The position numbers and the translations under genes are program-made. The notes under the pieces were generated by a model. That model was given only the letters and a program-made list of their open reading frames with translations. It was not told the DNA's origin and did not search any database. From Chiloscyllium plagiosum (lineage: Eukaryota), in the NCBI RefSeq assembly GCF_004010195.1, contig NC_057753.1:13565628-13627627 (forward strand): a stretch of DNA of 62,000 bases, given 5' to 3'. Positions 860-61,880 of the stretch are shown in pieces (position 1 is the first letter of the stretch; each line of letters opens with the position of its first letter).

Positions 860-2215
860 TTTTGTCTATCAAACATTCCACCAGAAAGCTACTGGCTCCT
901 ATTGCTACCTTCAGTGCAGCTCATCACACCCCACATCCTGCAAGGGCGCCATCTCATTCTTCCAATTCCTTTGTGTACGCCGCATCTGTGCCAACTTCCA
1001 AAACACCACTGGCTGACATGGTTTTCGTCTTCCATGACTGTGGTTTCCCACCCACTGTGTTTGAAAGGGCGCTCAAAACGCACCCAACCTATCACCCGTG
1101 CTTCCACCCTTGCCCCTTCCCATCACTCACAGCTTGATCGAGAGTCTCCTGTCCTCACTTTGCATTCCACCAGCCTCCACGTTCAAAAGATCACGCTCCA
1201 CCATTTTATGCAACTCGAGCAGCACACCATGACTGAATATATCTTGCCCTCAGTCCCCGGTCTGCATTTCACAGGCATTGTTTCTGGCCTGGCACCCTAG
1301 TCCATTCTACCACCATCAACATCACGTCCATGGTACCTTCCCATGTAACTGCAGAAGGTGCAACACCAGCCCCTTCACCTCATCCCTGCTCACCAACCAA
1401 GGGCCTAAGACAGTCTTTCCAAATGAAGCAGCATTACACCTATACCATCTCCAATCTTGTGGTATCGTATTCATCGGATCCAATGTTGTCTACTCTACAA
1501 TTGGAGAACCAAATGCAAATTGGGTGACTGCTTTGCTGAACACCTCTGCTCTGTGCACAAGCAGGACACTTGTCTGTACTCAGCATGCTGCAATGTTCCA
1601 GTGAATAACAATGCAGACAGGAGGAATAACAATGCAGACTGGGCGGCACGGTGGCACAGTGGTTAGCACTGCTGCCTCGCAGCGCCAGAGATCCGGGTTC
1701 AATTCCCGCCTCAGGCGACTGACTGTGTGGAGTTTGCACATTCTCCCCGTGTCTGCGTGGGTTTCCTCCGGGTGCTCCGGTTTCCTCCCACAGGCCAAAG
1801 ATGTGCAGGTCAGGTGAATTGGCCATGCTAAATTGCCCATAGTGTTAGGTAAGGGGTAAATGTAGGGGTAGGGGTATGGGTGGTTTGCGCTTCGGCGGGG
1901 CGGTGTGGACTTGTTGGGCCGAAGGGCCTGTTTCCACACTGTAAAGTAATCTAATCTAATCTAATCTCATCTTCAGGTTTGGCACTTTACAGCCTTCTGA
2001 ATTTAATATGGAATTCAATCCATGAATTGTGAACATTTCATTTACAGGTACTACCCCCAGCTCCCCACCCAAACTATACCATAAATGCTCTTGCCTCAAC
2101 ACTTTACTTCAGCTCTGATGAAGAGTTATCGAGACTCAAAATGTTAGTTTGCTCTTTTCCATGGACCCAGTCTAAACTGCTGTAATCTCCAGCATTTGTT
2201 GTTTTCAATACATAT
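860..2215 (+). mobile_element. Degenerate Penelope-like element 3' half (RT C-terminus, GIY-YIG endonuclease, pLTR), interrupted by a SINE
   Basis: Frameshifted peptides SSSHPTSCKGAISFFQFLCVRRIC, GTFPCNCRRCNT, KLGDCFAEHLCSV. After the SINE it resumes LIFRFGTLQPSEFNMEF, then a decayed hammerhead motif at 2115-2145. Confidence 0.8.
1641..1967 (+). mobile_element. HE1-like tRNA-derived SINE
   Basis: tRNA-like head (GTGGCACAGTGGTTAGC A-box, GGTTCAATTCC B-box), conserved core, LINE-like 3' tail, (TCTAA)n end. Confidence 0.95.
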
Positions 2216-2594
2216 TCCAGCAACTGAAGTAATTTGTTCCTGCATTGTGACAATGCTAATAATTTTTGCTCTGTCTGCAAATGAAATATCTTGAAAATAA
2301 ATCTACATCTTGATTAGATCACTGCTGAATGTTCTCAGCTCCATGGAGAATTAACTGATCTTCTGCTGTCTCTCCAGAACCAGAAATCCTGTCCTAATTT
2401 AATTTTTTCATGGAGTATGATTTTTTTTTGCTGCCCAGGCCATATTTATTCTGTATGTCTCAAGATTTTTTTTCACTCTCTCTTACTATGTAAGATTTGG
2501 CCATACTGCTCATAAACAAAGCTTTTCACTATATTAATGTGGTAATAAATAAATAAATCAATATTGTCCATCATTATTTGACTTGGAAGATGGA

Positions 2595-3010
2595 CAGAGA
2601 GAAAGAGGAGAGACACAGGTAGAGGGAGCGAAAAATAGGACAGAGAGAGATTCAATGTGACTGATCAATTGAAGCTGATGGATAAATTTTGTTTCTGGAA
2701 GAGATGATACATCTGGCCAGAGAAGGACACAACATTGTCAATGGGAAGAGAGATTTCAGAGAGAGAGCAAAACATAGTGTTGGTCTCTTTGTGAGAGAGT
2801 GCCTGACTGTGTGTGTGTGTGAGAGAGAGAGAGAGAACGAGAGGGAGATTGTCCATGTATGTGAGACAGAATATGTGGAGAGAGAGAGAGAGAGAGAGAC
2901 GAAGCATCTGTGTTTGTGTGTGCGTGAGAGAAAACAAATCAACAATCTGTGAGTGAGTGACAGTCTATGTGAGAGAATCCGTGGCTCTGAAAGAGAGAGT
3001 GTGTCTTTGA
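2595..3010. repeat. Degenerate (GA)n/(GT)n microsatellite field
   Basis: Interleaved GA and GT dinucleotide runs. Confidence 0.85.
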
Positions 3011-3176
3011 GATTGACAGTAAGAGTCTCCAAATACAGGAGGATTTTAGTTGATGTAATATCGTTAGATTTACCATTGAACTTTTCAATGGAAAGTTTGA
3101 ATATCCCCCTGTCAATTCATATTGTTTATCTGGAAATATCAGGAAGAATTATATTAAATATAATTCTTCAGCACTA

Positions 3177-3318
3177 ACCCTCCAACAGTGTCTGTTCACT
3201 CAACATCGACCCTTCGACAGGAAACACTCCCTCAGCCCCGACCCTCCGGCAGTGAGCACTCCCTCAGTATTAAGCCTCCTACAGCACCCGCTCCCTCAGC
3301 CCTGACCCTCTGACAGTG
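3177..3318. repeat. 32-bp minisatellite, about 4.4 diverged copies
   Basis: Units resembling ACCCTCCGACAGTGAGCACTCCCTCAGCACTG start at 3177, 3209, 3241, 3273, 3305. Confidence 0.75.
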
Positions 3319-5153: not shown

Positions 5154-5299
5154 GAGGAGAAAGTGAGGACTGCAGATGGCTGGAGATCAGAGCAGAAAAT
5201 GCGTTGCTGGAAAAGCGCAGCGGGTCAGGCAGCATCCAAGGAGCAGGAGAATCGACGTTTCGGGCATGAGCCCTTCTTCAGGAATGAAGAAATTCCTGA
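5154..5299 (-). mobile_element. Short PLE pLTR-derived insertion with intact hammerhead core
   Basis: Minus strand CTGAAGA-A-GGGC-TCAT-GCCC-GAAAC-GTC; short inverted copy ATTCCTGAAG; 14-bp direct repeat AGATCAGGATAAAT at 5135-5148 and 5300-5313. Confidence 0.85.
5254..5281 (-). ncRNA. Minimal type I hammerhead ribozyme motif
   Basis: CUGAAGA core, 4-bp stem II, GAAA, palindromic ACGU stem III, GUC cleavage triplet. Confidence 0.75.
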
Positions 5300-5750: not shown

Positions 5751-5779
5751 GCCCAGCAGCATAGGTGTTGTTCCTGATT

Positions 5780-6560
5780 AACAGCAGATCCAACTCTTGA
5801 ATTCACGAATGAATTTGCTGATCTTTCCACAGGTGTGATGACTGAGTGAATTCTTCCAGGAAATCAGAACACTTAAATGGCCTCTCCCTGGTTTGAACTC
5901 ACTGGTGTGCATGCATACTGGAGAACTGAGTGAATACGTTCCCACATGCCGACCAGCTGGATAGTTGGCCCCAGTGTGAGCTCACTGGTGTCTCAGTGTA
6001 TCCATTGAAATATTCACAGAGTTTCTTTCCAGATTCAGAGCAGGCAAATGCCCTTTCTCCAGTGGCAGCAGGCTGACCTTTCTGCAGGGCAAATGAGTCA
6101 GTGAATTCATTCCCACATTCAGAGCTGGTGAATGGCCTCTCCCTTCACGCAGTCCTCACATTTTTACAATTTTTTTTTCATGTGACGGGTATTGAAAGCT
6201 CAAGAATCAGCTGAAGCTCAACAATCAGCCGGTATGGTGTCTCCCTACTGTGAATAGTACAATGCCTTTTCTGGCTGTGTCATAGGTTAAAGGCTTTCCA
6301 TGTCAGTTCACTGGGGAGGCGGAGGATGGGGTTCATCTAAGTGCTTTTCCAGTGCAATAGATGTTTAAAACCTTTAATGTAGACAGAACAAATCGACATT
6401 TCTCCATCTGTGGTTATTCAAGTTCTGGTTAGTTTTGTGTCTTTCTGCACATGATGTCTGTTTTGAGATACGCATCTGCAAATCTTAACCCCCTAACATC
6501 CTGCAGAAGGAATTATAAAGTATTAAATTCAGATTAGAAATTCAGAAGATAATTCTAGTT
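5780..6560 (-). pseudogene. C2H2 zinc-finger pseudogene
   Basis: About 5 decayed fingers (ERPF-x-C-SE-C-G...HQ) with frameshifts, preceded by the cluster-typical 5' exon segment and splice acceptor near 6505. Confidence 0.8.
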
Positions 6561-6617
6561 TCTCTGGGAGTCTTTTTTTACCTTTCTCATCCCCCAAACC
6601 TGCAACGTGAAGATGCC

Positions 6618-6725
6618 AGAGTTGGATGGTGGTGGACAAAGCCAGAAGTCGCAGGACACAGGGTTATGGTCCAATAGGTTTATTTGAAATCACAGGCTTT
6701 CAGAGCGCTGGTCCTTCATCAGATA
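6618..6725 (-). mobile_element. PLE pLTR fragment (GGAGC-AGC-GCTCC hammerhead family), decayed
   Basis: Minus strand CTGATGAAGGACCAGCGCTCTGAAAGCC followed by family 3' sequence AAATAAACCTATTGGACCATAACC. Confidence 0.7.
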
Positions 6726-6931: not shown

Positions 6932-7800
6932 ATGGAAAGGAAGATAGCAGACAGATGCTTGATCAGATGGGCCAATGGGCTGAGGAGTGGTAGATGGAGT
7001 TTAATTTACATAAATGCGAGGTGTTGCATTTTGGAAAAGCAAATCTTAGCAGGACTCATACACTTAATGATAAGGTCCGAGGGAGTGTTGCTGAACAAAG
7101 AGACCTTGGAGTGCAGGTTCATAGCTCTTTGAAAGTAGAGACACAGGTAGATAGGATAGTGAAGAAGGAGTTTGGTATGCTTTCCTTTATTAGTCAGAGC
7201 ATTCAGTATAGGAGTTGGGAGGTCATGTTGCAGCTGTACAGAATGTTGGTTGGGCCAATTTTGGAATATTGCATATAATTCTGGTCTCCTTCCTATCGGA
7301 AGGATGTTGTAAAACTTGAAAGGGTTCAGAAAAGATTCACAAAGATATTGCCGAGGTTGGAGAATTTGAGCTACAGGGAGAGGTTGAATAGGCTGGGTCT
7401 GTTTTCCCTGGAGTGTCAGAGGCTGAGGAGTGACCTTATAGAGGTTTATAAAATCATGAAGGACATGGATAGGGTAAATAGAGAAGGTCTTTTCCCTGGG
7501 GTGGGGGAGTCCAGAACTAGAGGGGCATAGGTTTAGGGTGAGAGGAGAAAAATATAAAAGAGACCTAAGGGGCAACCTTTTCACACAGAGGGTGGTGTGG
7601 TATGGAATGAGCTGCCAGAGGATGTGGTGGAGGCTGGTACATTTACAACATTTAAAAGGTATCTGGTTGGGTATATGAATAGGAAGGGTTTGAAGGGATA
7701 TGGGCCAGGTACTGGCAGGTGGGACTAGATTGGGTTGGCATATCTGGTTGGCATGCCGGGTTGGACCGAAGGCTCTGTTCCATGCTGTACATCTCAATGA
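6932..7800 (+). mobile_element. CR1/HER1-type LINE 3' fragment
   Basis: MEFNLHKCEVLHFGK ... LSYRERLNRLGLFSLE ... WNELP, then 3' UTR ending GGTTGGACCGAAGG. Confidence 0.95.
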
Positions 7801-7930
7801 CTGTGTATTGAGAAGAGGATGGAGGTTCAGTCTGGGTGAAGCTCACTCTTCATTTAGAGGGAGGAGCAGTAGCAGCAGCTTCAGAAGATTATTGTCCCAT
7901 GTTCACTCACAGACAATAGGGGAGCTCTGA

Positions 7931-8247
7931 TTAGAAGACAGTATGGGGAAGGGGCTATTTGGCCCAACTAGTCCACACCAACCCTCTGAAGAGTAACCCA
8001 TTCAGACCCATTCCCCTACACTATGTTTACCTCAGACTAATGCACTCTGGGCAATTTTTAGCATAGCCAATTCACCTGACCTGCATACCTTCGGATTGTG
8101 GTAGGAAACCGGAGCACCCAGAGGAAACCCATGCAGACATGGGGAGAGTGTGCAAACTCCACATAGAAAGTCACCCGAGGCTGGAATCGAACCTGGGTCC
8201 CTGGTGCGGTGAGGCAGCAGTGCTAGCCACTGAGCCACTGTGCCACC
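7931..8247 (-). mobile_element. HE1-like SINE, older subfamily
   Basis: Reverse-complement SINE head, core and tail. Confidence 0.9.
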
Positions 8248-8254
8248 AAGCCAC

Positions 8255-8515
8255 TGTGATTGGCTCGAGATCCAAAGTGCCTCCAAACCTCCAGCTTTTC
8301 CCATTGGTCACATTACTGAAGATGACAGTGTTTGATGAAACATGGAATCAGGTGGGGCTCTTGGACTATAAACCCGTAACATTTGCAAACTTCAGTCAAT
8401 AGAAAAATAGGGTGCTGCCTTCCTAATCCAATCACAGAGTGGGGGCTGTTCTGGCAATGACTGGCTGGAAAATCAGAGTGCTTTTAATCTTCCTCCATTT
8501 CCCATTGGTCAATCT
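8255..8515 (-). promoter_or_regulatory. Decayed ZNF promoter module (paired CCAAT boxes), two tandem copies
   Basis: GATTGGCTCGAGATCC...CCTCCAG...CCCATTGG at about 8258-8307 and again at about 8457-8510; similar to 39147-39200 and 59052-59113. Confidence 0.5.
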
Positions 8516-9476: not shown

Positions 9477-9640
9477 CCATGATGAGGAGGTGTTGGTGTA
9501 GGACTGGTGGACCAAATTAAAAATCACACAACACCAGGATATAGTCCAAAAGGAAACTAGCTACCTGACAAAGGCCTTTGAAGGCCACTACTTCCAAATA
9601 AACCAGCTGGACTATAACCTAGTGTTGTGTGATTTTTAAG
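9477..9640. mobile_element. Fold-back PLE pLTR fragment
   Basis: Arms TTAAAAATCACACAACACCAGGATATAGTCCA / TGGACTATAACCTAGTGTTGTGTGATTTTTAA; TTTATAAAGAG repeated at 9466-9476 and 9641-9651. Confidence 0.75.
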
Positions 9641-9769
9641 TTTATAAAGAGGCCACAGGTTTTCAGCAGGTTTTCAGCAAATAAATGTGTGTGGCTGAGA
9701 GAGCAATAATGACAATAAATGTAAGAGGGTGTTCCCTCACCTCATTCACTTCCTGTACCTGTGGTCTCT

Positions 9770-9934: not shown

Positions 9935-10900
9935 CAGAGAGTCATAGAGTCATACAAATGTTCAGCCTTCGGTCCAACACGTATATGCCGACCAGATATC
10001 CCAACCCAATCTAGTCCCACCTGCCAGCACCCGGCCCATATCCCTCCAAACCCTTCCTATTCATATGCCCATCTAAATGCCTCTTAAATGTTGCAATTGT
10101 ACCAGCCTCCACCACTTCCTCTGGCAGCTCATTCCATACATGTACTACCCTCTGCGTGAAAAAGTTGCCCCTGAGGTCTCTTTTATATTTGTCCCCTCTC
10201 ACCATAAACCTATGCCCTCTAGTTCTGGACTCCCCGACCCCAGGGAAAAGACTTTGTCTATTTATCCTATCCATGCCCCTCATAATTTTGTAAACCTCCA
10301 TAAGGTCACCCCTCAGCCTCCGACGCTCCAGGGAAGACAGCCCCAGCCTGTTCAGCCTCTCCCTGTAGCTCAAATTCTCCAACCCTGGCAATATCTTTGT
10401 GAATCTTTTCTGAACCTGTTCAATTTTCACAACATCTTTCTGATAGGAAGGATACCAGAATTGCATGCAATATTCCAACAGTGGCCTAACCAATGTCCTG
10501 TACAGCCGCAACATGACCTCCCAACTCCTGTACTCAATACTCTGACCAATAAAAGAAAGCATACCAAATGCCGCCTTCACTATCCTATCTACCTGCGACT
10601 CCACTTTCAAGGAGCTATGAATCTGCACTCCAAGGTCTCTTTGTTCAGCCTTATCATTAAGTGTATAAGTCCCGCTAAGATTTGCTTTCCCAAAATGCAG
10701 CACCTCGCATTTATCTGAATTGAACTCCATCTGCCACTTCTCAGCCCATTGGCCCATCTGGTCCAGATCCTGTTGTAATCTGAGGTAACCCTCTTCGCTG
10801 TCCACTACACCTCCAATTTTGGTGTAATCTGCAAACTAACTAATTGTACCTCTTATGCTCGCATCCAAATCATTTATGTAAATGATAAAAAGTAGAGGGC
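9935..10900 (-). mobile_element. CR1/HER1-type LINE 3' fragment, young
   Basis: Open 264-aa RT C-terminal frame (10011-10805); 3' UTR with CTCTATGA-type tail. Confidence 0.95.
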
Positions 10901-11519
10901 TGGAGCACACCGGGGGTCTAAGATTTCCTGTCATGACTTCTCTTTAAATTAAGCTCGTTACTCTCTTTGCACAGAATTCAATAGAGCCAGTGATCTTCCT
11001 TCATTTTAAAAAATTCTAATATAATCAAAACTTCTACCTGTACTTTAGCTGATATATTATACTTGATAAACTCTGTAGAAAATAATCTCACAATATTACC
11101 TACCAACTGATTGTTTCAACTGGGCCAGTGTCACTTTCTAAACTTCACAGACTGAGGGCACTGCATTCAATCTTTCAGTTCGACCTTCTCTATGTCTCAC
11201 TCACTATCTGTTTCCACCCAACTCTCATTGTGCAATGCAGCACTCACAGTGCAGCCTTATTACTTTAATTGTCTTGTCACACCCATTCTGACCCAAGACT
11301 CCTGTACTGTTCCAATGCAGCTCAATGGGAGCTCAGGGAACAGCATCTCATCTTTCAGTTCAGCACTTCATAATGCTTAGGACTCAAAGATCTGTACCGT
11401 TCCACCTGAAAGGGAGTAGGAACATAAGTCCATAAGGAATTTTACAAGCAAGTGTGCAGGTGTTTGAGAATGAGGGATTTAAAGGTTAAAATTATGAAGT
11501 GGGTACAAAACTGGGACAA

Positions 11520-11920
11520 ACTATGGTGTGGAGGATCCAGCGTTGCACTGGGGTGGTCAAAGTTAAATTGACGTGGAGGAACCGGTATTGGACTGGGGTG
11601 GATGAAGTTAAAAAATGACTCCATTGTGACGAGGAATGTTCCCGGTTCAACTAGTCCATGGTGCTGAGTTTCTGTAAGAAATCCATAGTGTTGCAATAGA
11701 AGCTGGGAGTCGTGATGGAAGCTGAGATGATATATCATTTCAGTTGCATGACACTGTTATCTTTTGCTGGAATTCTGTGTCTTATGATCCTGTTCCACAG
11801 CTACCTGTGGAAGCAGCAGCGCTCCGCAAGCTAGTGCTTCCAAGCAAACCTGTTGGACTATAAACTGGTGTGTGATTTTTAACTTTGTCCACCCCAGTCC
11901 AACACTGGCTCCTCCACACC
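11520..11920. mobile_element. Rearranged PLE: pLTR pieces in both orientations plus a short RT fragment
   Basis: Minus strand DFLQKLS and HGLVEPGTFLVTM (PLE RT) at about 11620-11720; + strand pLTR with decayed hammerhead at 11805-11835. Confidence 0.65.
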
Positions 11921-12272: not shown

Positions 12273-12977
12273 CTTGGAGTGCAGGTTCATAGCTCCTTGA
12301 AAGTGGAGTCGCAGGTAGATAGGATCGTGAAGAAGGTGTTTGGTATGCTTTCCTTTATTGGTCAGAGTATTGAGTACAGGAGTTGGGAGGTCATGTTGCA
12401 TCTGTACAGGACATTGGTTAGGCCATTGTTGGAATATTGCATGCAATTCTGGTCTCCTTCCTATCGGAAAGATGTTGTGAAACTTGAAAGGGTTCAGAAA
12501 CGATTTACAAGGATGTTGCCAGGGTTGGTGGATCTGAGCTACAGGGAGAGGCTGAACAGGCTGGGGCTGTTTTCCCTGGAGCATCGGAGGCTGAGGGATG
12601 ACCTTATAGAGGTTTACAAAATCATGAGGGGCATGGATAGGATAAATAGACAAAGTCTTTTCCCTGGGGTCGGGAAGTCCAGAACTAGAGGGCAAAGGTT
12701 TAGGGTGAGAGGGGAAAGATATAAAAGAGACCTATGGGGCAACCTTTTCACACAGAGGGTGATACGTGTATGGAATGAGCTGCCAGAGGAGGTGGTGGAG
12801 GCTGGTACAATTGCAACATTTAAGAGGCATTTGGATGGGTATATGAATAGGAAGGGTTTGCAGGGATATGGGCCGGGTGATGGCAGGTGGGACTAGATTG
12901 GGTTGGGATATCTGGTCGGCATGGACGGGTTGGACCGAAGGGTCTGTTTCCATGCTGCACATCTCTATGACTCTATG
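12273..12977 (+). mobile_element. CR1/HER1-type LINE 3' fragment, young
   Basis: Open 205-aa RT C-terminal frame; ends CTCTATGACTCTATGA. Confidence 0.95.
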
Positions 12978-12979
12978 AC

Positions 12980-14080
12980 ACAGGTTAGGAGAGTGGGCAA
13001 AGAAGTGGCCGATGGAATACAGTGTGGAAAAATGTGAAGTCATGCACCTTGGTAGAAAGAATAGAGGCATGGACTATTTTCAAAATTGGGAGAAAATTCA
13101 TGAATCTGAACTGCAAAGGTGCTTGGGAGTCCTTGTCCACTGTTCTCTTCAGGTAAACTTACAGGTTGAGTTAGGAGTTAGGAAAGCAAACACAGTATCA
13201 GATTAGATTCCCTGTGGAAACAGCCCACTTGGCCCAACAAGCCCGCACCGACTCTTTGAACAGTAACCCACCCAGAACCATTTCCCTTTGACTAATGCAT
13301 CTAACACTATGGGCAATTTCTCATGGCCAATTCACCTAACCTACATATCTTTGGATTGTGGGAGAAAACCCACACAGGCACAGGGAGAATGTACAAACTC
13401 CACACAGTCACCTGAGGCAGGAATCAAACCTGGGTCCCTGGCACTGTGAGGCAGCAGTGCTAACCACTGAGCCACCCAACGGTGTCATTCATCTCGAAAG
13501 GACAAGAATTTTAAAGCAGGGGTGTACTTCTCAAGCTGTATAAAAGCTCTGGTCAGACCATCTTTACATTATGTGAGCAATTTTAGGCCTCATACCTCAG
13601 AAAGGGTGCACTGGCCCTGGAGCTGGTCCAGAGGAGGTTCACGAAAATTATTGTAGGAATGAAAGGCTTAAGATATGAGGAATAGTTGAAGACTGAGACT
13701 ATACACAATGGAGTTTTAAAGGATGAGAGGTGATCTAATCAAAACTTACAGAATACTGAATGGCCTCTTCAGAATGGACATTGGGAAAATGTTTCCATTG
13801 GCAGGAGAAACAAGGACCCAAGGGCACAGCCATTGAGTAAGGAGATAAGGCAGAGAGTGATGATTTTGTGGAATTCATTGCCACTGAAGGCTGTGGAGAG
13901 CAGGCCATTAAGTATATTTAGAACAGACATAGATTGATTCTCTTGACAATCAAGAACCTAAGGCTATGAGAAGAAAGCCAGAGAATGAGGTTGAAAAAAA
14001 ACTTATCAGCGATGATTGAATGAGGGAGCAGACTCGATGGGCCGACTGGCCTAATTTCTGCTTCAACGTTTTATGGTCGT
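12980..14080 (+). mobile_element. Older CR1-type LINE 3' fragment split by a SINE
   Basis: MEYSVEKCEVMHLGRKN, decayed RT C-terminus and 3' UTR GACTCGATGGGCCGACTGGCCT. Confidence 0.85.
13201..13477 (-). mobile_element. HE1-like SINE
   Basis: Reverse-complement SINE head, core and tail. Confidence 0.9.
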
Positions 14081-15435: not shown

Positions 15436-15596
15436 GGGAATTTGCACAAATCGAACTGAAACCCAAGGGACATGTTTGTTCTGGATTTCTGCAACTGGAC
15501 TGGCAGTGATTTATTTTTTTTTCTTTTCTGAATTCGTTTCACAGAGTGTTAATTGCGAACGGAATCTGAAAGCCATTTCTGACAGTCAGCAGAGTG

Positions 15597-47114: not shown

Positions 47115-47460
47115 GGAGAGTCAAAAGTGTGGTGCTGGAAAAGCACAGCAGATCAGGCAGCATCCGAGGAGCAGGAGAATCGACATATCAGGCATAAGCC
47201 CTTCAGGAATGTGGAAGGGGAGGGATGGGAATTGGGAGATAAATAGGAGGATGGGGGTTGGGGTGGGCTTGAAGGAAGCTGGAAAGGCGATAAGTAGGTG
47301 CAGGTGGGGTTTGATGGTGATGGGTCAGAGGGGAGGGTGGAGTGGATAGGTGGGAAGGAAGATGGGCAGGTTGGACAGTTCAAGGGGGCGGTGCCGAGTT
47401 TGAGGTTTGGAACTGGGATGAGGTGGGGGAGGGGAAGCAGAGCTGGGAGATTTAGTCATG
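47115..47460 (-). mobile_element. PLE 3' region and pLTR with decayed hammerhead
   Basis: GCTGGAAAAGCACAGCAG...GAGAATCGACATATCAGGCATAAGCCCTTCAGG followed by a purine-rich segment. Confidence 0.75.
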
Positions 47461-48904: not shown

Positions 48905-49041
48905 TAATACAATTCCTGATGAAGGGCTTATGCCTGAAATGTTGATTCTCCTGCTTCTTGGATGCTGCCTAACCTGCTGTGCTTTTCCAGCATGACACAC
49001 TTGACTCTGATTTCCAGCATCTGCTGTCCTCACTTTCTCCC
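48905..49041 (+). mobile_element. Short PLE pLTR insertion with CpG-decayed hammerhead and TSD
   Basis: CTGATGA-A-GGGC-TTAT-GCCT-GAAAT-GTT at 48916-48943; TGTT(C/T)ACATGCAG at 48892-48904 and 49042-49054. Confidence 0.85.
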
Positions 49042-49385: not shown

Positions 49386-49729
49386 TCATAGAATCCCCAG
49401 TGTGGGAACAGGCTATTCAGTCCAACATATTCACACTGACCCTTCGAAGAGCATCCCACCCAGACCCAACCCTCGACCCCGTTCCTGTATTCCCCATGGA
49501 TACTGCACCGAAGCGACAGATCCCTGAATATGATGAGCAATTTAGCCAATCTGCCTAACTTCCACATCTTTAGATGGTGGGAGGAAAGCCTAGGTTACAC
49601 AATGGAAACCCATGTGGACATGCGGAGAATGTGCAAACTCCACACAGACAGTCGCCTGAGGTTTGAATCGAACCTGGGTCCCTGGCACTGTGAGATAGCA
49701 GTGATAACCACTGAACCAGCGTGCCACCC
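49386..49729 (-). mobile_element. HE1-like SINE, older subfamily
   Basis: Reverse-complement SINE. Confidence 0.85.
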
Positions 49730-50234
49730 CCAAAGGTTGAGCCTGTTGACCCCAAGGAAGACTTCGGGGCCAGGATTGTGGCACCGCGTAGATTGGGGAA
49801 GGCAGTATAAACTCAGAAGGTTCTGTGGGACAAACACGTGCACCTTGTGGACTATAAACTAGGGGGCACAGTGATGCTGACAGTGTTCTGAACTACATCT
49901 CTCCTTTCCCCACAGTGTGCTGGGCTCGATTTGATTCTTGAGAAATTGAGTCCTTCACTTTGCAAATTACAGCTGGGAATAGTCAAAAAAAGCTGGCATC
50001 GTATAAATCAGCTCAAATTTCTCAAGGGGCAGGTAGCCCATATATTGTCACTCAGCCCAGGTACAAACTGATGTCCCTTGAGCAGGAGACTCAGGCTGAA
50101 GGCAACCTGAGAATCGAACCAGTGAACAGACCTCCTTCTCTGACTATCAGGACATCCTACACACTCGATCAGAGTTCTTCCCCCCTACCTGAACAGAGGA
50201 AGAAAGAGAGAGAGAGACACCCCCCTCTTAATAT

Positions 50235-50532
50235 TTAGATTAGATTAGATTACTTACAGTGTGGAAACAGGCCCTTCGGCCCAACAAGTCCACACCGACC
50301 CTCTGAAGAGCAACCCACCCAGACCCATTCCCCTACATTTTACCCTTTCACCCATTAGCATGGCCAATTCACCTAACCTGCACAATTTTGGACTGTGGGA
50401 GGAAACCGGAGCACCCGGAGGAAACCCATTCAGACACGGGGAGCATGTGCAAACTCTACACAGATGGTTGCCTGAGGCAGGAATTGAACCCGGGTCTTTG
50501 GCGCTGTGAGACAGCAGTGCGAACTACTGTGC
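50235..50532 (-). mobile_element. HE1-like SINE
   Basis: (TTAGA)n plus reverse-complement SINE body. Confidence 0.95.
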
Positions 50533-51564
50533 TCAAGAGATTGAGAAATAAAAGGGAGGAGCACTGCTGTCAAACTAACCCACTCCATTCTCATCTTGCT
50601 ACTGATCCAGATGGGAGCATGAGAGCTGTGACGTGACAGCACTGATGTGTATTTTAAAATGAGATGAGTGGTGGTGTTCAGATTCTAAAATTTAATGGGG
50701 TTTTAAACTTTAAACTTTTCTGCTCATTAATATGACAAAGGGTCTCGGAAACTAAACCGTGATACTCACAGAAACTACACTTGATTGTTTTTTAAGATGG
50801 CCTGCCTCACGGAAACGTACAAGCAACCAGACTGACTGCAGTTCGTATGTTCTTCTCCACCTCTATAGTTATCGGTGGATGTGTAGCTGTTGCATTGCGT
50901 GTTCACATGGGAAGCCGAGGGACCTGGGGGAATCTGAGATTTGATCCATCCAATGCTGCAGGATGCGAGGGCAGGATTCTGTGGGTTCACCAGCAAAAAT
51001 GGTCACGTTCAGTTGTGATAACCAACTTACTGTATACAGGAAATCCAATGGAAGATTCCCCTTTTGTTGTATGTGTAGAGGTCTTACAGAGGATTGGTGA
51101 GGCTGTACTAAAAGCAGGTGCGCCAAAATAGGCTGCTCAGCCCACAGCCAAGAGAAGGGTTTAGAAACACTGCATTGGTGTCCAGGGAAGCCAAAACTGG
51201 TTGTGTCTTTAGAAAATGTGAAGTTAAAAAAGAACTGACCAAAAACAGCAGTGAGGACACCCACCATGAATTTTTTATTGATTTGTCTGTAAAATACTTC
51301 CGTCTTCAATTTCATGCTCCTTCATAATTTCATTTCACAATAGACACGCCACAATCAAGAATGTGCAAAATAGCGAGAATTTTCAGAGAGGATTAACCAG
51401 CACTTTTTCATTGGAGACGTTCATCAGTACAGCCTTTCAGAGTTATAGATTTGCTGCCAAAGGTCCATTTAGAATTTATGAAAAGTTCACAATTTTACTG
51501 TGAACAGGTTTCTGAGATTTTTTGAATCAATCCTCTTGGGAAATAAGGCAGGCCAGCACAGCAA

Positions 51565-53705
51565 TTGACTGAGGTATCAGTGGGGGAGTACTTCGGGGCC
51601 AGCAACCATTATTCTATTAGTTTGGAAATATTGATGGAAAAGGAGAGACCAGATCTAAGAGTTAAAGTTCTAAATTGGACAAAGGCCAACTTTGACTGTA
51701 TTAGGCCAGAAATTCCAAAAGGTGATTGGGGGTGGATAGTCGCAGGTAAAAGAACGGCTGGAAAAGGGAAAGCATTCAGAAATGAGATAATGAGAGTCCA
51801 GAGACAATGATTCTGTTATTGTGAAAGGCGAGTCTGGTAGGTGAAAGGAATGTTGGATGGCTACAGAAATTGACGTTTTGGTCAGGTTTACACAGCAGAT
51901 ATTGAGTGAATCCTTAGAAGTGTATGAAGACAGTAGGAATATACTTAACAGGGAAATCAGGAAGACAAAAAATGGGACATGAGATAGCTTTGGCAAATAG
52001 GGTTAAGGAGAACTCAAAGGGACTTTATAAATATGTTAAGGACAAAACGGTAATTGAGGAGAGAATAGAGCCAATTAAAGATCAGCAAGGCAGCCTATTT
52101 GTGGAACTGCAGGAAATAAAGGAGATGCTTAACAAGTATTTTCCATCAGTGTTTACTGTGGAGAAGGACACGGAAGATATAGAATGTGGAGAAATAGATG
52201 GTGACATTGTGAAAAATGTCCATATTAATAGAGGAGGAGGTGCTGGATGCCTTAAAACACATAAAGGAGGATATATCCCTAGGACCTGATCCTAGAACTC
52301 TGTGGAAGCCATGGAAATGATTGCTGGGCTCCTCACTGAGATATCTGTATCATCAATAGTCACAAAATGAGGATGCTGGAAGACTGGAGGTTGACTAGTG
52401 TAGTGCCACTAATTAAGGAACAATGGACCAGTGAGCATGACATCAGTGGTGGGTAAGTTTTGGAAGGAATCCTGAGGGACAGGAATTTCATGTGTTTGGA
52501 AAGGCAAGGACTTATTAGGGATAGTAAACATGGCTTTGTGCATGGGAAATCATGTCTCACAAACTTGATTCTATGGGGGGACTCTTAAATACTGAAGAGG
52601 ATTCATGAGGGCAGAATGATGGATGTAATTGAAATGGACTTCAGTATGGCATCTGACAAGGTTCCCCATGGGAGAATGGTTAGCAAGGTTAGATCACATG
52701 GAATACAGGGAGAACGAGACATGTGGATACAGAGCTGGCTTGAAGGTAGAAGAGAGAGGGTGACGGTCGAGGGTTGTTTTTCAGACTGGAGGCCTGTGAC
52801 CAGTGGTGTGCCACAAGGATCAGTGCTGAGTCCACTGCTTTTTGTCATTTATATAAATGATTGAATGTGAACATAGGAGGTACAGTTAGTAAGTTTGCAG
52901 ATGACACCAAAATTGGAGGTGACAGAATACAAAGGAATCTTGATCAGATGGGCCAATGGGCTGACGAGTGGCAGATGGGAGTTTAATTTAGGTGAATATG
53001 AGGTGCTGCATTTTGGAAAGGCAAATAAGGCAGGATTTATACACTTAATGATGTGGTCCTGGGAATGTTGCTGAATGAGGAGACCTTGGATTGCAGATTC
53101 ATAGTTCCTGAAAGTAGAGTCGCAGGTGGATAGGATAGTGAAGAAGGCATTTGGTGTGCTTTCCTTTATTAGAGTATTGAGTATAAGATTTGGGAGGTCA
53201 CGTTGCAGCTGTACAGGACATTGGTTAGGCCACTTTTGGAGTACTGTTTGCAATTCTGGTCTCCATCCTATCGGAAGGATGTTGTGAAACTTGAAAGGGC
53301 TCAGAAAAGATGTACAAGGATGTTGCCAGGTTTGGAGGGTTTGAACTACAGGAAGATGCTGAATAGGCTGGGGGCGCTTTCCCTGGATTGTCGGAGGCTG
53401 AGGGATGACTTGAAAGAGATTTATAAAATCACAAGAGACATGGATAGGATAGACACGATATTTTCCCTGGGGTGGGGGAAGGCCAGGATTAGAGGGCATT
53501 GGTTTAGGTGAGAGGGGAACAATTTGTAAGGGATTTAAGGGGCAACTCTTTCATGCAGAGGGTAGTGCATATGTGGAATGAGCTGCTAGAGGAAGTGGTG
53601 GAGGCGGGTACAATTACAATATTTAAAAGGCATCTGAATGAGCATATGATTAGGGAGGATGTGGGCTAAGTGCTGGCAAATGAGACTAGATTAATTTAGG
53701 TTATC
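51565..53705 (+). mobile_element. Long degenerate CR1/HER1 ORF2 (end of endonuclease through RT and 3' end)
   Basis: EYFGASNH...[37 protein letters not shown]...[30 protein letters not shown]. Confidence 0.95.
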
Positions 53706-53759: not shown

Positions 53760-54920
53760 TAAGTGCTTTCACAGGATGAATCCTGCCTGTTGTTAATGTG
53801 GACAATAGCAGCAGAATCAGAACCCTGCCTTCACTTATGAACGCACTGACATTTCCGCAGGTATCACAACTGAGGCATCCGTTCCTTCACATGGAACACG
53901 GGAACAGTTCCTTGCCAGTTTGAACGTGGGGATTCTGAACAAAGTGGCACTGCACCCAAAACATTGACTCTGTGCTCTTCCTCCCCAGATGCTGCCCTAC
54001 CAGCTGAGTCTCTCCAGTAATTCCTGTTTTTGATTTGGATAACTGTCTGAAATGCTTCCAAAAGGAAGAGCCGCCGAACTGTGTTTCTCCTTAGTGTGAA
54101 CTCAGTGGTATGACAGGAGAACAAACAACTGAGTGAACCCCTTCCCACAACCAAGTCGGGTGAATGGTCTTGTCTACTCTGTGAACCCCTTGGTGTCCAA
54201 TCAGGTCGAATGTTTGAGTGAATCCTTTCCCACACACGGTCTCCCCCTGTGCGAAGTCATTGGGGTGCAGCGTGGCTGGATGAATTGTTGAATTCCTTTC
54301 CCACTGTAAATGCAGTTGCAGGGCCTCTGCTCGGTGCGAACTGTCTGCTGTGACATCCGGGGGAGATGTCTGAGGAGATCTCTTCCCACATACAGAATAG
54401 ATAAATTGATTACCCCCAACGGGACCACATCAGTAACTTCCCAGCCAAGACGAAGATGTTAACCCTTTACCACAGTGCTCACATTTCCACATTTTGTTCA
54501 TGGTGCCCGTGTTTCTGTCTCTCTCCAGGTTGGACAATCAGATGAAGCCCTGATCCGACGTGTAACACAAACACTGTGTCTCCCCACTGTGAATGATGTA
54601 GTAATTTTTAAAAACTGATTACACAGTCACTGCTGCCCCAGTATCCTCTTAGATTGTGTGCCTGTTGCTGATTCTCACTGATTATTTGATTTGCTCTCCC
54701 GCAGACAAAATAAACACTCCTCCTTCAACTTTTCAAGATCAATGGTATTCAAGTCCTGATGGATCAAGTCGCTCTGTTGACGAGTGACATGAGGTTTGAT
54801 TTGAGATTCTGAACAGGGAACCCTCCCCTTCTGGTATCCTGTAAAGGAGTTTACTCAAGTCCACAGTGACAGTCGAGGGTAGGTATTCAGAAAGATAATT
54901 TCAGTTTTTAATAAAAGGAT
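53760..54920 (-). pseudogene. C2H2 zinc-finger pseudogene with a PLE pLTR insertion (about 53932-54032)
   Basis: Minus strand ACCATGAACAAAATGTGGAAATGTGAG start near 54502, decayed fingers, cluster-typical 5' exon segment at 54700-54900. Confidence 0.8.
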
Positions 54921-55545: not shown

Positions 55546-55554
55546 CACTGGGGT

Positions 55555-56481
55555 TCACTTATGAATTCGCTCGTGTGACATTAGGTTGACGGACTGAGTG
55601 AATCCCTTCCCACACACAGAGCAGGTGAACGGTCTCTCCCCAGAGTGAACTCGCTGGTGCACAATGAGGGTGGATTTCCTCCTGAAATTCTTCCCGCAGG
55701 TAATGCAGCTGAAAGGCTTTTCTCCAGTGTGAACGCGCTGGTGTGTCGACAGATTGATCTTCTGAGCAAACCCCTTGCCACATTCGGAGCAGGTGAAAGG
55801 TTTTTCTCCAGTGTGAACCCGCTGGTGTATGAGCAAGCTGGCTGATCGAGTGAATCCCTGCCCACATTCAGAGCAGGTGAACGGTTTCTCTCCACTATGA
55901 ATTCTCTGGTGTGTCAACACATGGGCTCTCTGGGCAAATCCCTTGCCACACAAGGGGCACGTGAACGGCTTTTCTCCAGTGTGAACCCGCTGGTGGATGA
56001 GCAGTTTGGATGACTGCGTGAATCCTTTCCCGCACAGGGAGCAAGTGAATGGCCTCTCCCTGGTGTGAGTGAATTGGTGTACAATGAGAACAGAAGAGTG
56101 TCTGAACCTCTTACCACAGGAGGTGCAGCTGAATGGCTTCTGCTCAGTATGAATTCGCTGGTGTGATCGAAGGCCAGATGAACGAGTAAATCTCTTCCCA
56201 CACACAGAGCAGATGAACGGCTTCTCCCCAGTGTGAACTCGCTGGTGCTTATTCACTTCAGAAGAAGATCTGAACCTTTTTGAACAGCAGCTGCAGCTGA
56301 ATGGCCTCTCCTCGGTATGAATTCGCTGGTGTGCCACCAATTTGTTTGACTCAATAAATCCTTTGCCACACATGGAGCAGTTGAATGGCTTCTCCCCAGT
56401 GTGAATGCGTTGATGGATTTCCAGCCGGGAGGGGTACTTGAATGCCTTCCCGCAGTCCTCACATTTCCACAAATTCTCCAT
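55555..56481 (-). CDS. C2H2 zinc-finger protein, 11 tandem fingers, no effector domain seen
   Basis: Intact ORF from ACCATGG (MENLWKCEDCGK...); acceptor TTTTCCAG| at 56808; upstream CpG-island promoter. Confidence 0.9.
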   Translation of the reverse strand: MENLWKCEDCGKAFKYPSRLEIHQRIHTGEKPFNCSMCGKGFIESNKLVAHQRIHTEERPFSCSCCSKRFRSSSEVNKHQRVHTGEKPFICSVCGKRFTRSSGLRSHQRIHTEQKPFSCTSCGKRFRHSSVLIVHQFTHTRERPFTCSLCGKGFTQSSKLLIHQRVHTGEKPFTCPLCGKGFAQRAHVLTHQRIHSGEKPFTCSECGQGFTRSASLLIHQRVHTGEKPFTCSECGKGFAQKINLSTHQRVHTGEKPFSCITCGKNFRRKSTLIVHQRVHSGERPFTCSVCGKGFTQSVNLMSHERIHK

Positions 56482-56979
56482 GGTGTGGATGTATTTGTAC
56501 CTCTTCAGCTGAAGGATTAGTTAGAAGATTGTCCAAACATGTACAGTCTCTCCCTGCTCGAATGGTGATCTCTTAACTGTGTGAATGATTGGAGTTCCTT
56601 TCACTGTCTGTATGCTGGCAACACTCACTTATGACGCGCCTGCCTTGGTGCTTTTCCAGTCGCACTGATGTTTGTAGTCTTTTCTCCAAAAGACAGAACA
56701 AAAGTTTCTCCTTACATACTCAAAGGCTGGCGATATTCAGATCCTGGTGAACTGATGACTCTGTTGAACCTTGACAGGACATTTTCAAATCTGTGCAATT
56801 GCTTCCCCTGGAAAACGAGATGACAAAAGCCAGTGAAGATTAGAACATCAAAAAAGACAGTTCCAGTTTCTATGGAGTGGTTTTTCCTCTCTTTTTTTTG
56901 TCTAGTGGTTGTGGGTGAATACTCTCTGCCCATCTTCTAGCATTTCCTTCCTTACCAGAGGTCAGACCCTCATTGAAAC

Positions 56980-58020
56980 AAGGGCAAGACTTACACAATT
57001 AAAGATAGTGTTGTAGAACAGGGAGACACAGGGGTTCTGATTCACAACCCTTTGAAGTTTGCGTCACATATCGACAGGGTAGTTAAGAAGGCATTCAGTA
57101 CACTTGCCTTCACTGGTCACACCTCTGGACACAGGAGTTGGGACATCATATTGAGGCTGTACAGGATGTTTAGAGCTTAAACATGTGTTGCTGGAAAAGC
57201 GCAGCAGGTCAGGCAGCATCAAAGGAGAAGGAGAATCGAAGTTTCGGGCATAAGCCGTTGGATTATATGCAGTTTTGGTAATCCTACTGTCAGAAGAATA
57301 TTATGAAATTGGAGAGGGTTCAGAAAAGATTTACCAGGATGTTATGGAGTTTAGATTAGACTACTTAAGAGTGTGGAAACAGGCCCTTCGGCCCAACAAG
57401 TCCACACCGACCCGCCGAAGCGCAACCCACCAGACCCATTCCCTTAGATTTACCCATTGACCTAACACTGGCAATTTAGCATGGCCAATTCACCTAACCT
57501 GCACATTTTTGGACTGTGGGAGGAAACCGGAGCACCCGGAGGAAACCCACGCAGACACGGGGAGAATGTGCAAACTCCACACAGTCAGTCACCAGAGGCG
57601 AGAATTTAACCCGTGTCTCTGGCGCTGTGAGGCAGCAGTGCTAACCACTGTGCCACCATGCCACCCATGAGTGTGGAGGGTTTGATTTATAAAAGTAGGC
57701 TGAGACCTTTTTCACTGGAATTAGGCGTTTTAGGGGTGGCCTTATAGATGTTTAGAAAATCCTGAAGGGCATGGATAAGGTTAATAGCAAGGGTCTTTAC
57801 CAGAGGAGTTCAAAACCAGGGGGCACAATTCTGAGGTGAGAGGAGGAAGTTTTAAAAAGGGGAATGAGGGCAACAAGTTTGAAAGAGTCATTCATGTGTG
57901 GAATTAAATGCCAGAGGATCTGGTGGAAGCAGGTACAGTTACAACTTTTAAAAGGTATTCAGTTAAGTGCATGAATAGGGACCAAAGGCAGGCAGGCAGG
58001 TGGAACCAGTTTAATTTGGG
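56980..58020 (+). mobile_element. Decayed CR1 3' fragment with nested PLE piece (57172-57257) and SINE
   Basis: RT C-terminal remnants flank both insertions. Confidence 0.8.
57351..57666 (-). mobile_element. HE1-like SINE
   Basis: Full SINE on the minus strand. Confidence 0.95.
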
Positions 58021-58032
58021 AACACCGTCGGT

Positions 58033-58343
58033 GATTAGATTAGATTACAGTGTAGAAACAGGGCCTTCGGCCCAACAAGTCCACACCGACCCGCCGAAGC
58101 GAAACCCACCCATACCCCTACACTTACCCCTTACCTAACACTACGGGCAACTTAGCATGGCCAATTCACCTGACCCTGCACATCTTTGGACTGTGGGAGG
58201 AAACCGGAGCACCTGGAGGAAACCCACGCAGACACGGGGAGAATGTGCAAACTCCACACAGTCAGTCGCCTGAGGCGGGAATTGAACCCGGGTCTCTGGC
58301 GCTGTGAGGCAGCAGTGCTAACCACTGTGCCACCGTGCCGCCC
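58033..58343 (-). mobile_element. HE1-like SINE
   Basis: Full SINE on the minus strand. Confidence 0.95.
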
Positions 58344-58719
58344 ATCAAATGCTGGACAATCTGTCTGGGTTAATTTACAACATCTTGAGGTCACAGGCGA
58401 GTTGGACTGAAGGCCCTGTTTCCGTAACATTATCACTCAATCATTTTCCCCCCACCCCACCCCCCCAAAGTGGAATTATTGTTTATTCTTCTTCCACCCA
58501 CATCCCCACTTGTGAACCTTCCTCCTCAAACTGGGGCCTATTGCGTTTACTGCTTGCAAATCATCAGAAAAAAAAAATGTAAAAAGTCATCAGAGTACTG
58601 CAAAATTTGGATAGAAATTGTGAATAAACGTACATTCCTCTGTGCTCTTCCAGCACCACTAATCCAGAACATTTCTCTGGGTTTGAATTCACTATGGGCA
58701 GATCTGCTTTCCCCAGCCA

Positions 58720-59135
58720 CCTGTGACGTAATGCTACGCATGCGCCCTGATGCACTTTTCCCACAATAAAGATGGCCGCCCTCAATCGGGCACTGCCCCG
58801 CTTTAGGCCTGCCGCCATTTTCTGGTCGGCCTCAAACCATAGCCTCAGGCGTCCCGTTCCGAGCGGGAGGATTTCCCAGCGTTTAACAAAGCTGTTGAAT
58901 CCGTTCTCACTCTTGTCGCTCTCGACTTATTCTCACCTTTGAACGACTCGGCTCTCCCACAAGCCCAGACCTGAGTTAGAACGACGTTGCCGCTTGCGCA
59001 CGGGGACACCGACGTGGCGGACGGTCACGTGCCCAGCCGTCCGTTCACTCCGATTGGCTGGAGGACCTGCGGCTTCCACGCGGTCCTCCAGGCCCGCCCC
59101 CTGCTCCCATTGGTTGGGTGTTGCCTTCAATGACG
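58720..59135 (-). promoter_or_regulatory. CpG-island promoter with non-coding first exon of the 56-kb ZNF gene
   Basis: Minus strand CCAAT, GC box, TGGAGGACC-N14-GGTCCTCCA, CCAAT, donor AAAG|GTGAGA (GT at 58936), then YY1-like and NRF1-like sites. Confidence 0.8.
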
Positions 59136-59425
59136 TGGGCAAGCCTGCATTGTCCTGGGGTGGACACAGTTGAAGTCCACCCAACACCAGGCTTACAGTC
59201 CAACAGGTGTATTTGGAAGCATTAGCTTTCTGAGCGCTGCTCCTTCATCAAGTAGCCAGTGAAATAGGATCATAGGACACAGCAAGCCATCACAGTGTCA
59301 TGCAATTAAAACGATATATTTAACAAACCTGGATTGTTGTTAAGTTCTTAAATCTTATAAAATGGTTTGCAGGTTTTGGTTCATTAGTATGTAAATCCCA
59401 GAACTTCATTTAAGTCACATTCTCA

Positions 59426-59681: not shown

Positions 59682-59921
59682 ATAACAAAGTAACTCAAGT
59701 CAACCAAGCAGGTGCCATGAGGATGGGTGAAAGGACAGCGCAAAACAATCACCAGACAGGGGTGTGCCCTCCCAGTCGCGGAATATGTCAGCGGGTCAAG
59801 GACATTCGCCCTCGGATCTTCAGGTGGCCATCCTCCAGGGTGGACCTGCGGACAGGCAACAATGCAAAGTGGCCAAACAGGGTTTGATAACCAAGGTAAC
59901 CCATGACGATGGCCTCAACCA

Positions 59922-60223
59922 GGACGGCATGGTGGCTCAGTGGTTAGCACTGCTGTCTCACAGCATCAGGGTCCCAGGTTCGATTCCAGCCTCGGCAACT
60001 GCCTGTGTGGAGTTTGCACATTCTCCCATTGTCTGCATGGGTTTGCTCCGGTTTCCTCCCACAGTCCAAAGATGTGCAGGTCAGGTGAATTGGCCATTTT
60101 AAATTGCCCATAGTGTTAGGTACATTAGTCAGAGGGGAAATGGGTTTGGATGGGTTGCTCTTCAGAGGATCGGTGTGGACTGGTTGGGCTGAAGGGCCTG
60201 TTTCCACACTGTAGGGAATCTAA
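59922..60223 (+). mobile_element. HE1-like SINE, older subfamily
   Basis: SINE head, core and tail inside the PLE ORF. Confidence 0.9.
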
Positions 60224-60934
60224 GGACCTTGGTTTCATGTCACACTCCAGGTGAACCCACGACATTGTACACTATCTCTCTTACACATACACACTCCCTC
60301 ATGCAGACCCTTTGTCATATACATGCTCTCTCACACAGACACATACACCCACCAACCTTCTCACAGGCTTATAACCCATCACATTTGCACACACTTTACC
60401 AAACTTGCACACACGTAAACACACACCCTCTCATGTGCACTCGCATTCAAATGCTCACATGCACACATTCATATTTTCTCTCTCTGTCTCTCCTGTATGC
60501 ACACACACATATAAGTCTATGGGGTGAATTTGTATTTGCAGAATTATATTTAAACATGCATTCTATTTTGTTCAAACAATGCACAACCTATGGGCAGTCA
60601 ATGCAGACAGTCAATCTGTAAAGTATTTGGTAAATTCCACTTTGGAAATAGAACCAGTCTGACTCAATATTGGGATACAGACAGACCCTGACCTCACACC
60701 TTTAGTGCATTGTCTGAACTGATGTCACCTTATTTTATGAAACCTTAACTTATCTTGAGAATGTGACTTAAAAGAATTTTAGGGATTTACATATTAATGA
60801 ACAAAAACCTGGAACCCATTCTAAAATATGAAAGATTTAACAACAATCTAGGTTTGTTAAATATACCATTTTATTTGCATGTCACTAATTTTTCACTATA
60901 AATTCTTTGTCTTTTGCTCCTGCTTCACAACCAA

Positions 60935-60963
60935 CTGAAGAAGGATCAGTGCTCCGAAAGCTA
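60935..60963 (+). ncRNA. Minimal hammerhead ribozyme motif
   Basis: CUGAAGA-A-GGAUC-AGU-GCUCC-GAAA-GCU-A: core intact, one stem II mismatch, palindromic AGCU stem III. Confidence 0.65.
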
Positions 60964-61254
60964 GTATTTCTAAGTAAACCTGTTTAACTATAACCCGATG
61001 TTGTGTGATTTTTTTTAACTTTGTCATCTTCAATCCCATGATGGTCTGAGCATGTGCAGTCTATGGTGAGACGGAGGGAGCTAGAGTTGCAAATCAAACT
61101 GGGAACTTGATTCCCTGCCCAAACCCCACTCTGTGGTTTATGCTTCACTTGATATCTCTCAGACAGAAATGAGGAATTTGGTCTCTCAAAGGGCAGTGAT
61201 TGTGTGAAGTGCATTCCTGCAAAGTTTGTCAGGATGAGGTGGTTCAATGTGACC

Positions 61255-61880
61255 ATCATAAATAGGAACAGGGTGATGCTGTTCAGCCCATTGAGCATGC
61301 TCCCCTGTTCAATAGGATCATGACTGATCAGATATTCCTCATGTCCACTTTCCTGCCCTGTCCCTGCAACCTTTGATTCCCGACTGATCAAGAGTCCATC
61401 CATCTCAGCCATAAAGTACACAAAGACTCTGCCCTCACTGCTGACTGTAGGCAGCCAGGAGGCTGGAAGAACACAGCTAGCCAGGCAGCATCAGGAGGTG
61501 GAGAAGTCGACGTTTTGGGTGTTCCACTGCACAGTCTGTTCAAAAGGTGCCCACTCTGAATAAGTTATCCACCTTACACCTGAAACGTTGACTTGTCCAC
61601 CTCCTGATGCCGCCTGACTTGCTGCCTTCCAATCTCCTGCCTGTCTACTTTGGATTCCAGCATCTGCAGTTACTTTGTTTCACAGCTCGCTGTGGCAAAG
61701 AGTTCCAAAGACTCAGAATTCTCTGAGAGAAGAAATTCCTCCTCATCTCAGAATTAAATTGGTGTCCATTTCTTCTAAGACTCTGCCCTCTTCTGCTTGT
61801 AGAATCTCCCATGAAGGGAAACAGTCTTTCAGCAGTTATCCCATTATGCTTCTTACGAATCTTACGTACTTCAATGAGAC
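61255..61880 (-). mobile_element. Decayed CR1 3' fragment interrupted by a fold-back element
   Basis: CR1 3' UTR (GATCATGACTGATC) and RT C-terminal remnants. Confidence 0.75.
61449..61680. mobile_element. Fold-back PLE pLTR insertion
   Basis: Arms AGGCAGCATCAGGAGGTGGAGAAGTCGACGTTTTGGGTG / CACCTGAAACGTTGACTTGTCCACCTCCTGATGCCGCCT; imperfect TSD CACTGCTGACTGT / CACAGCTCGCTGT. Confidence 0.75.

Follow-up and report, generated by a model that had tools for sequence, protein, structure and literature searches.

Hammerhead motifs in the window

The stretch analysed here, hereafter the window, comprises 62,000 nucleotides of the genome of the shark Chiloscyllium plagiosum (NC_057753.1, positions 13,565,628 to 13,627,627) and carries numerous short hammerhead ribozyme motifs. 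We consider it very probable that these loci are the 3′ ends, consisting of a pseudo-long terminal repeat (pLTR) and an optional tail, of at least four families of Penelope-like retrotransposons bearing a minimal type I hammerhead, and that the copies are likely inert insertion stubs, not working ribozymes.

A preliminary description of the window had listed about 17 hammerhead loci, and the motifs are present at those positions, on both strands. Four family profiles, each built from 24–60 copies taken from elsewhere in the genome, gave 28 matches in the 62 kb, with all 17 loci among them, and none on the reversed sequence. The families are labelled by their helix II: A, GGGC/GCCC; B, GGAGC/GCTCC; C, GGGTC/GACCC; and D, GTCGCCT/AGGGGAC. 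The loci are what had been proposed: minimal hammerhead motifs of type I that belong to several families of Penelope-like elements. Rfam, at least, misses them: none of its hammerhead families matched, even at loose E-values, among results to E 5 and E 10 (whole window; 15500–19300). A structural descriptor found five perfect-core matches in the window, compared with 0.33 on average, and never more than 2, over 60 dinucleotide shuffles; with one change allowed and the full helix II and palindrome present, it found seven versus 0.33. The motif reads CUGANGA-N-helix II-GAA-ACGU/AGCU-H, where H is the base at the cut site, without the extra ‘TH’ of the preliminary description, as the palindrome already includes A15.1 and U16.1. 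The core CUGANGA...GAAA...UH, with an extra base before helix II and G10.1–C11.1, is formed by the commonest letters in all four families. The Penelope-like features of the window are as follows.

831–1481, plus strand: degraded Neptune-type reverse transcriptase (RT) thumb, zinc-finger linker and GIY-YIG fragment (tblastn with the L229 protein, 30% identity, E 1e-10)
2108–2216, plus: family C-like pLTR end; motif 2115–2145, G12 changed to A (profile and core scoring)
5156–5291, minus: family A pLTR end with tail; intact motif 5281–5254, predicted cut after GUC at 5254; flanked by a 14-nt direct repeat
6605–6725, minus: family B pLTR end, with C in place of U16.1 (profile and core scoring)
9481–9647, no single strand: family B head-to-head palindrome, both cores broken (profile and core scoring)
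11730–11918, plus: family B pLTR end; two core changes
15562–15753, no single strand: family A head-to-head insertion; minus-arm core intact (15656–15629), plus arm 15683–15753 with tail; 16-bp triplication at the junction
16544–16663, minus: family B pLTR end, truncated at C3 (profile and core scoring)
19023–19480, minus: truncated copy of family D (putatively Poseidon-type); GIY-YIG C-terminal frame 19477–19181, intact motif 19131–19098 with predicted cut after GUU; nearest genome copies 96–98% identical
27892–28034, no single strand: family C head-to-head insertion; plus-arm motif 27934–27970, U4 changed, loop insertion
28299–28420, plus: family C pLTR end; G8 changed, palindrome broken
32219–32253, plus: family A fragment without the CUGA box
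38781–38882, plus: family C pLTR end with a G12-to-A change in a CpG
45904–46039, no single strand: old family C head-to-head remnant (profile and core scoring)
47108–47440, minus: family A copy that includes about 230 nt of untranslated region (UTR) upstream; core bases deleted
48911–49040, plus: family A pLTR end with tail; core intact (48916–48943), G-U wobbles at 10.1–11.1 and in the palindrome
53932–54043, plus: family C-like pLTR end; two core changes
57172–57256, minus: family A fragment without the CUGA box
59133–59425, minus: family B copy that includes about 180 nt of UTR; U in place of C3
59791–61045, plus: long family B copy; endonuclease C-terminus 59791–59943, UTR, core-intact motif 60935–60963 with one helix II mismatch and a weak helix I
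61432–61625, no single strand: A-related head-to-head remnant, both cores broken (profile and core scoring)

From strand and distance, the coding remnant at 831–1481 is probably the body of the element that ends in the pLTR at 2108–2216. Every core base is kept in five of the 17 loci (5281−, 15656−, 19131−, 48916+ and 60935+), and three of these (5281, 15656 and 19131) are clean, also having G10.1–C11.1, a Watson–Crick palindrome and a paired helix II. The other 12 are broken, with the CUGA box absent in two (32221 and 57238), core bases deleted in one (47180) and one or two core changes in nine; about 70% of the loci are therefore not intact ribozymes. Further degenerate arms, overlooked earlier, lie near 9481–9647, 45904–46039 and 61432–61625. 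A covariance model built from 15 copies from outside the window recovers 11 of the 12 loci that do not belong to family B, at E 0.07 or better.

Parent elements of the four families

In all four families the hammerhead motif lies downstream of a GIY-YIG frame, which places it, on the 3′ side of the element, in the pLTR of an RT–GIY-YIG retrotransposon. The loci had been described as mostly non-coding Penelope derivatives; they are instead 5′-truncated copies of coding elements and do not form a separate non-coding class. In long copies of family A, a frame with a CX4CX2C linker and GIY-YIG ends about 170 nt upstream of the motif, and longer copies match RVT_1 and GIY-YIG (Pfam). Family B has a Neptune-like endonuclease frame about 690 nt upstream of its motif, seen also in the window at 59791–59943, and family C joins another Neptune-like endonuclease frame in four of 30 loci, the linker being seen in L191. 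The family D endonuclease, as translated from a longer copy (L097), has a C-terminal GIY-YIG without the linker; Pfam gave no match on the 94-amino-acid (aa) piece of family D in the window, a piece that lacks the first motif. A CX2-5CxxC linker before a C-terminal GIY-YIG has been described as the mark of Neptune, and its absence as that of Penelope/Poseidon (PMC8557442). With this linker, which is present in A, B and C, these three families would be Neptune-type, in a sense that takes together Neptune and Nematis, whose formal separation needs an RT tree, and D would be Poseidon-type.

The nearest named relatives of the linked protein are found in Chiloscyllium punctatum (87–90% identity), the whale shark and rays. 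Two ray proteins, P0006 and P0012 (named as a kinase-domain and a chitinase-domain isoform), match the Penelope frame over 65–72% of the query; these are probably gene models that absorbed element sequence, or cases of exonisation. Further variants of the motif occur at L013:2524–2563 (−), L151:9723–9768 (−) and L173:4711–4749 (+), and because they carry other helix II sequences, the genome holds more than four families.

Helices, covariation and decay

Covariation was assessed in 15 hand-picked natural copies with intact cores, drawn from families A, C, D and relatives; the first alignment had four more rows, which were dropped: two of family B, the one from the window and another. Here 86.5% of cells are paired, compared with 71.0% after shuffling and 18–42% after sliding, and there are 22 two-sided changes versus 5.4, lying in helices I and II. 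The covariation of stems reported in the preliminary description thus holds between families and subfamilies; it does not extend to the copies within a single family, in which CpGs change on one side only. A palindromic helix III without a loop is found in A, C, D and relatives, and family B, read by eye, has an AGCU palindrome and a 5-bp helix II.

Within family A, core positions outside CpG carry a letter other than the commonest one in 12 of 590 cells (2.0%), compared with 325 of 3434 (9.5%) downstream, a contrast that is in part a subfamily difference. CpG decay is plain in the same family, G12 being changed in nine of 74 copies and the palindrome CpG changed one-sidedly in 28 of 74. As the core is kept and the CpG changes are one-sided, selection appears to act on source elements while the copies decay neutrally.

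Number and density in the genome

We searched the 3.56-Gb assembly with a general intact-core pattern that requires no pairing, and obtained 166,014 matches, about 47 per Mb, versus 225 in the control. Of these, 41 lie in the random sample described below; helix II is paired and the palindrome intact in every one of the 41, and helix I closes in 37. An exact 30-letter pattern for family A matched 39,678 times and a family B pattern 18,959 times, each with no match in the control. A random sample of 959,904 bases (100 stretches at fixed round positions on large contigs) contained 285 pLTR ends, or 297 per Mb, ranging from none to seven per 10 kb and covering 2.9% of bases; extrapolated, this gives about one million pLTR ends in the genome. 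The very high density claimed for the window is thus real as a genome-wide number and is a property of the genome, the window itself, with 28 matches in 62 kb (452 per Mb), being only somewhat above average.

Anatomy and arrangement of the insertions

The 3′ ends of the copies fall at two fixed points about 25–35 nt apart. Among 40 close head-to-head pairs, the longer end (the tail) is on one arm in 32, on both in two and on neither in six, and a flanking direct repeat of at least 8 nt accompanies 20 of the 40, compared with 6.5% in a control. This anatomy fits the insertion unit described previously, i.e. an inverted 5′-truncated copy, a one-sided tail and a target duplication (PMC8557442, PMC3846280), combined with two internal start sites and extension of both strands (PMC11167929). 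The inversion junction of one family A insertion coincides exactly with 2.6 copies of a 16-bp unit (15643–15684), which suggests repeated re-priming while the arms were being joined. Pure fold-back priming was considered and rejected: it predicts that the tailed arm should more often be the one extending further 5′, yet this is the arm without a tail in ~17 cases and the tailed arm in ~7, although junction microhomology blurs these counts.

The preliminary description supposed that the hammerheads cleave as dimers, and the layout of the copies offers no same-strand partner for this. An intact same-strand neighbour within 4 kb was found for none of the 28 window matches and for 10 of 185 random matches, and same-strand tandem units with a hammerhead each, the hallmark of retrozymes, were not found in the window or the random sample. 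Since the copies are solo or head-to-head and not same-strand tandems, cleavage of dimers in cis is unlikely. A transcribed palindrome (L007) is predicted to fold as one long hairpin of −179 kcal/mol, which would bury both motifs. Single-strand folding gave the catalytic fold for none of three copies. Two-molecule folding did not give a catalytic dimer either, which is no evidence, because the energy model does not represent that dimer. Upstream of family A motifs (e.g. 5281–5292 on the minus strand, and A-type references) lies sequence that can pair with the CUGAAGA box in a competing hairpin, and this hairpin may be a ribozyme off-state.

5′ ends at helix I

With C3 taken as zero, a first tally placed 92 of 180 sampled 5′ ends at −15 to +4 and one at +25 to +29. 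Against natural long references, 116 of 211 5′ ends in families A–C lie at −13 to +9, around helix I, with 52 of the 211 at −5 to −2, on its 5′ strand, and only five at the cut site (+27 to +30). The stop rate per base is 4.7% at −13 to +9, versus 0.5% downstream and 0.7% upstream. The peak is present in A1, A2, B and C, in paired (61/90) and solo (55/121) copies, and in 29 of 40 A1 copies that share at least 92% identity with their reference; at the 5′ edge of helix I the read depth of family A increases about fivefold. Family D shows no clear step in its 5′ ends (six copies), and its read depth is gradual.

Because so many 5′ ends fall near helix I and so few at the cut site, the templates were probably uncut, and the 5′ pattern probably reflects such templates with release at helix I. 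Alternatives are a promoter at that point or, in family A, endonuclease trimming at ATT. We rejected a spliced-leader origin, as 54 solo copies share no upstream sequence beyond a pyrimidine-rich 10-mer in three of them.

In one poly(A) single-cell run, which tests cleavage weakly, reads of family A come from both strands at similar depth, and neither their starts nor their ends accumulate at any point, a pattern that passive read-through would give.

Other repeats and genes around the loci

C2H2 zinc-finger arrays in both orientations lie at 25986–26954 (+), 41648–42853 (+), 55558–56520 (−), ~37028–38511 and ~46138–47036, and three open frames among them have 11–12 fingers; the window holds a zinc-finger gene cluster. 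A repeat of 300–370 bp, which we take to resemble the shark HE1 short interspersed element (SINE), occurs in about 13–18 copies, one of them (59922–60223) inside the family B element at 59791–61045. There are also about eight related 3′ fragments of a long interspersed element (LINE), presumably CR1-like, with RT-like frames, and a tandem duplication at 35174–35448 with a 136-bp unit, 97% identical.

Copies of the 300–370 bp repeat: 1639–1964, 5776–6145, 7928–8256, 13197–13478, 21191–21488, 27245–27602, 31221–31530, 49389–49734, 50234–50533, 54047–54418, 58033–58349, 59922–60223 and others
LINE 3′ fragments: 6958–7811, 9941–10901, 12273–12979, 17605–18382, 43662–44314, 52629–53705

Origin and fate of the copies

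We propose that the RT–endonuclease would bind pLTR RNA and nick both strands of the target, with reverse transcription starting at two sites about 25–35 nt apart, a course demonstrated in vitro for an Anolis Poseidon (PMC11167929). Synthesis of cDNA would copy through the uncut ribozyme, release in the Neptune-type families usually occurring at the 5′ strand of helix I. Selection would keep the core and helices in a few source elements, and copies would decay by CpG deamination after insertion. Any cleavage would need a same-strand partner or help from protein, and so may mainly concern tandem source elements. For the Neptune-type families we tentatively go one step further, to a possibility that we hold to be rather less probable than its converse: the uncut hammerhead fold may itself be the boundary that ends cDNA synthesis, as a protein-bound stop or as the protected 5′ edge of the template. 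It may thereby have turned a 3-kb retrotransposon into a factory for stubs and hairpins of 110–250 bp, giving the shark genome its roughly one million pLTR ends and the largest hammerhead count that we met with, here or in the literature.

Several points weigh against this account as a whole. No full-length source element with two direct pLTRs was found in 40 loci, many with masked stretches, and the longest stop-free RT–endonuclease frame in them is 518 aa; neither the start of the open reading frame nor the promoter was recovered. The covariation set was picked by hand and omits family B, and the covariance model, likewise built without that family, recovers none of five family B loci. As regards the 5′ pile-up in particular, around 7 of its 54 solo cases are alignment drop-offs into divergent UTR or other element sequence, the limits −13 to +9 were chosen after the data had been seen, and family C has few matched references for mapping 5′ ends. 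Intact cores persist in 64 of the 185 copies from random stretches, and these form a large pool that might still be capable of cleavage in trans or aided by protein. The RNA reads come from a single poly(A) single-cell sample, of which about 2% of the run was read, and are poor for mapping ends; those of family D are strand-skewed by about 4:1.

The short copies might instead be a self-propagating non-autonomous class, similar to retrozymes or to miniature inverted-repeat transposable elements, in which short or palindromic masters are transcribed, cut by the hammerhead and re-inserted by Penelope protein. The very high number of short copies would suit such a class, as would the inversion junction shared by several loci and the proposal that retrozymes derive from pLTRs (10.64898/2026.07.22.740005). 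We nevertheless regard it as improbable: none of 18 tandem-repeat rows in the window is a hammerhead-bearing array, intact same-strand neighbours are as rare as noted above, and the cut site accounts for few of the 5′ ends; most junctions are unlike one another, and where the shared one is present, either arm may carry the tail. These counts cover the window and the random sample, and rare retrozyme arrays may exist elsewhere in the genome.

It is less probable still, and in our view very unlikely, that some copies are ribozymes domesticated by the host, which would cleave or control transcripts from the C2H2 zinc-finger genes around them. The three clean copies do lie in the zinc-finger cluster, and domesticated intronic hammerheads exist in amniotes (PMC6155905). 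The clean copies, however, belong to the youngest subfamilies (the exact family A matches and the closely similar family D copies above), youth which explains their intactness; moreover there is no helix III, and three copies folded as single strands did not reach the catalytic fold. Chance similarity in ordinary SINE or LINE tails, to which the lack of an Rfam match and the 71 matches (versus 48.8 in shuffles) of a loose descriptor with a mis-specified helix III might seem to point, is ruled out by the genome-wide count against its control, the covariation and the pairing of sampled matches, and is at odds with the linkage to Penelope endonuclease frames. The copies are thus best read as insertion stubs of Penelope-like elements.

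Comparison with known systems

Minimal hammerheads in the pLTRs of metazoan Penelope-like elements were described in 2014 by Cervera and de la Peña (PMC4209133). As in that account, the motifs here have type I topology, no helix III loop, a palindromic 15.2–16.2, an extra base between A9 and 10.1, G10.1–C11.1 and a short helix I, and they occur as several families per genome, mostly as single motifs or opposite-strand pairs. The number differs: 166,014 intact-core matches compared with ~4,000 in coelacanth and ~9,000 in Xenopus (PMC4209133), and with 126,247 hammerheads in axolotl (PMC7229834), a rough comparison because search rules differ. Sharks are not named in the results, discussion or bioinformatic methods of PMC4209133, and the part of PMC7677710 covered mentions neither Penelope nor ribozymes. 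We found no paper on shark Penelope hammerheads and no published description of 5′ ends at helix I, in a search outside which subscription journals, Repbase and Dfam lay.

The elements resemble Neptune and Penelope/Poseidon units in having RT followed by GIY-YIG, with the linker in A, B and C and not in D, and in their 5′ truncation, inverted 5′ copy, one-end tail and target duplication (PMC8557442, PMC3846280). Uncut RNA would be the substrate, as in the in vitro system of PMC11167929, where cutting is not required for insertion. The portions of these three accounts on which we draw do not mention 5′ ends piling up at the foot of helix I.

Animal non-LTR retrozymes share with these copies type I hammerheads, very high copy number and a relation to pLTRs; they are same-strand tandem units of 170–400 nt that yield circular RNA (PMC7229834; 10.64898/2026.07.22.740005). 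The copies here, unlike retrozymes, are solo or head-to-head, have fixed ends and run back into an endonuclease frame. Head-to-head copies, if transcribed, would form long perfect hairpins and so would probably supply shark cells with double-stranded RNA. Thus the motifs are of a known kind, in new families of a shark-type genome and mostly broken in the window; to that known kind our analysis adds the scale and the 5′-end pattern, and with so many insertion fossils the role of the hammerhead in Penelope elements becomes statistically testable.

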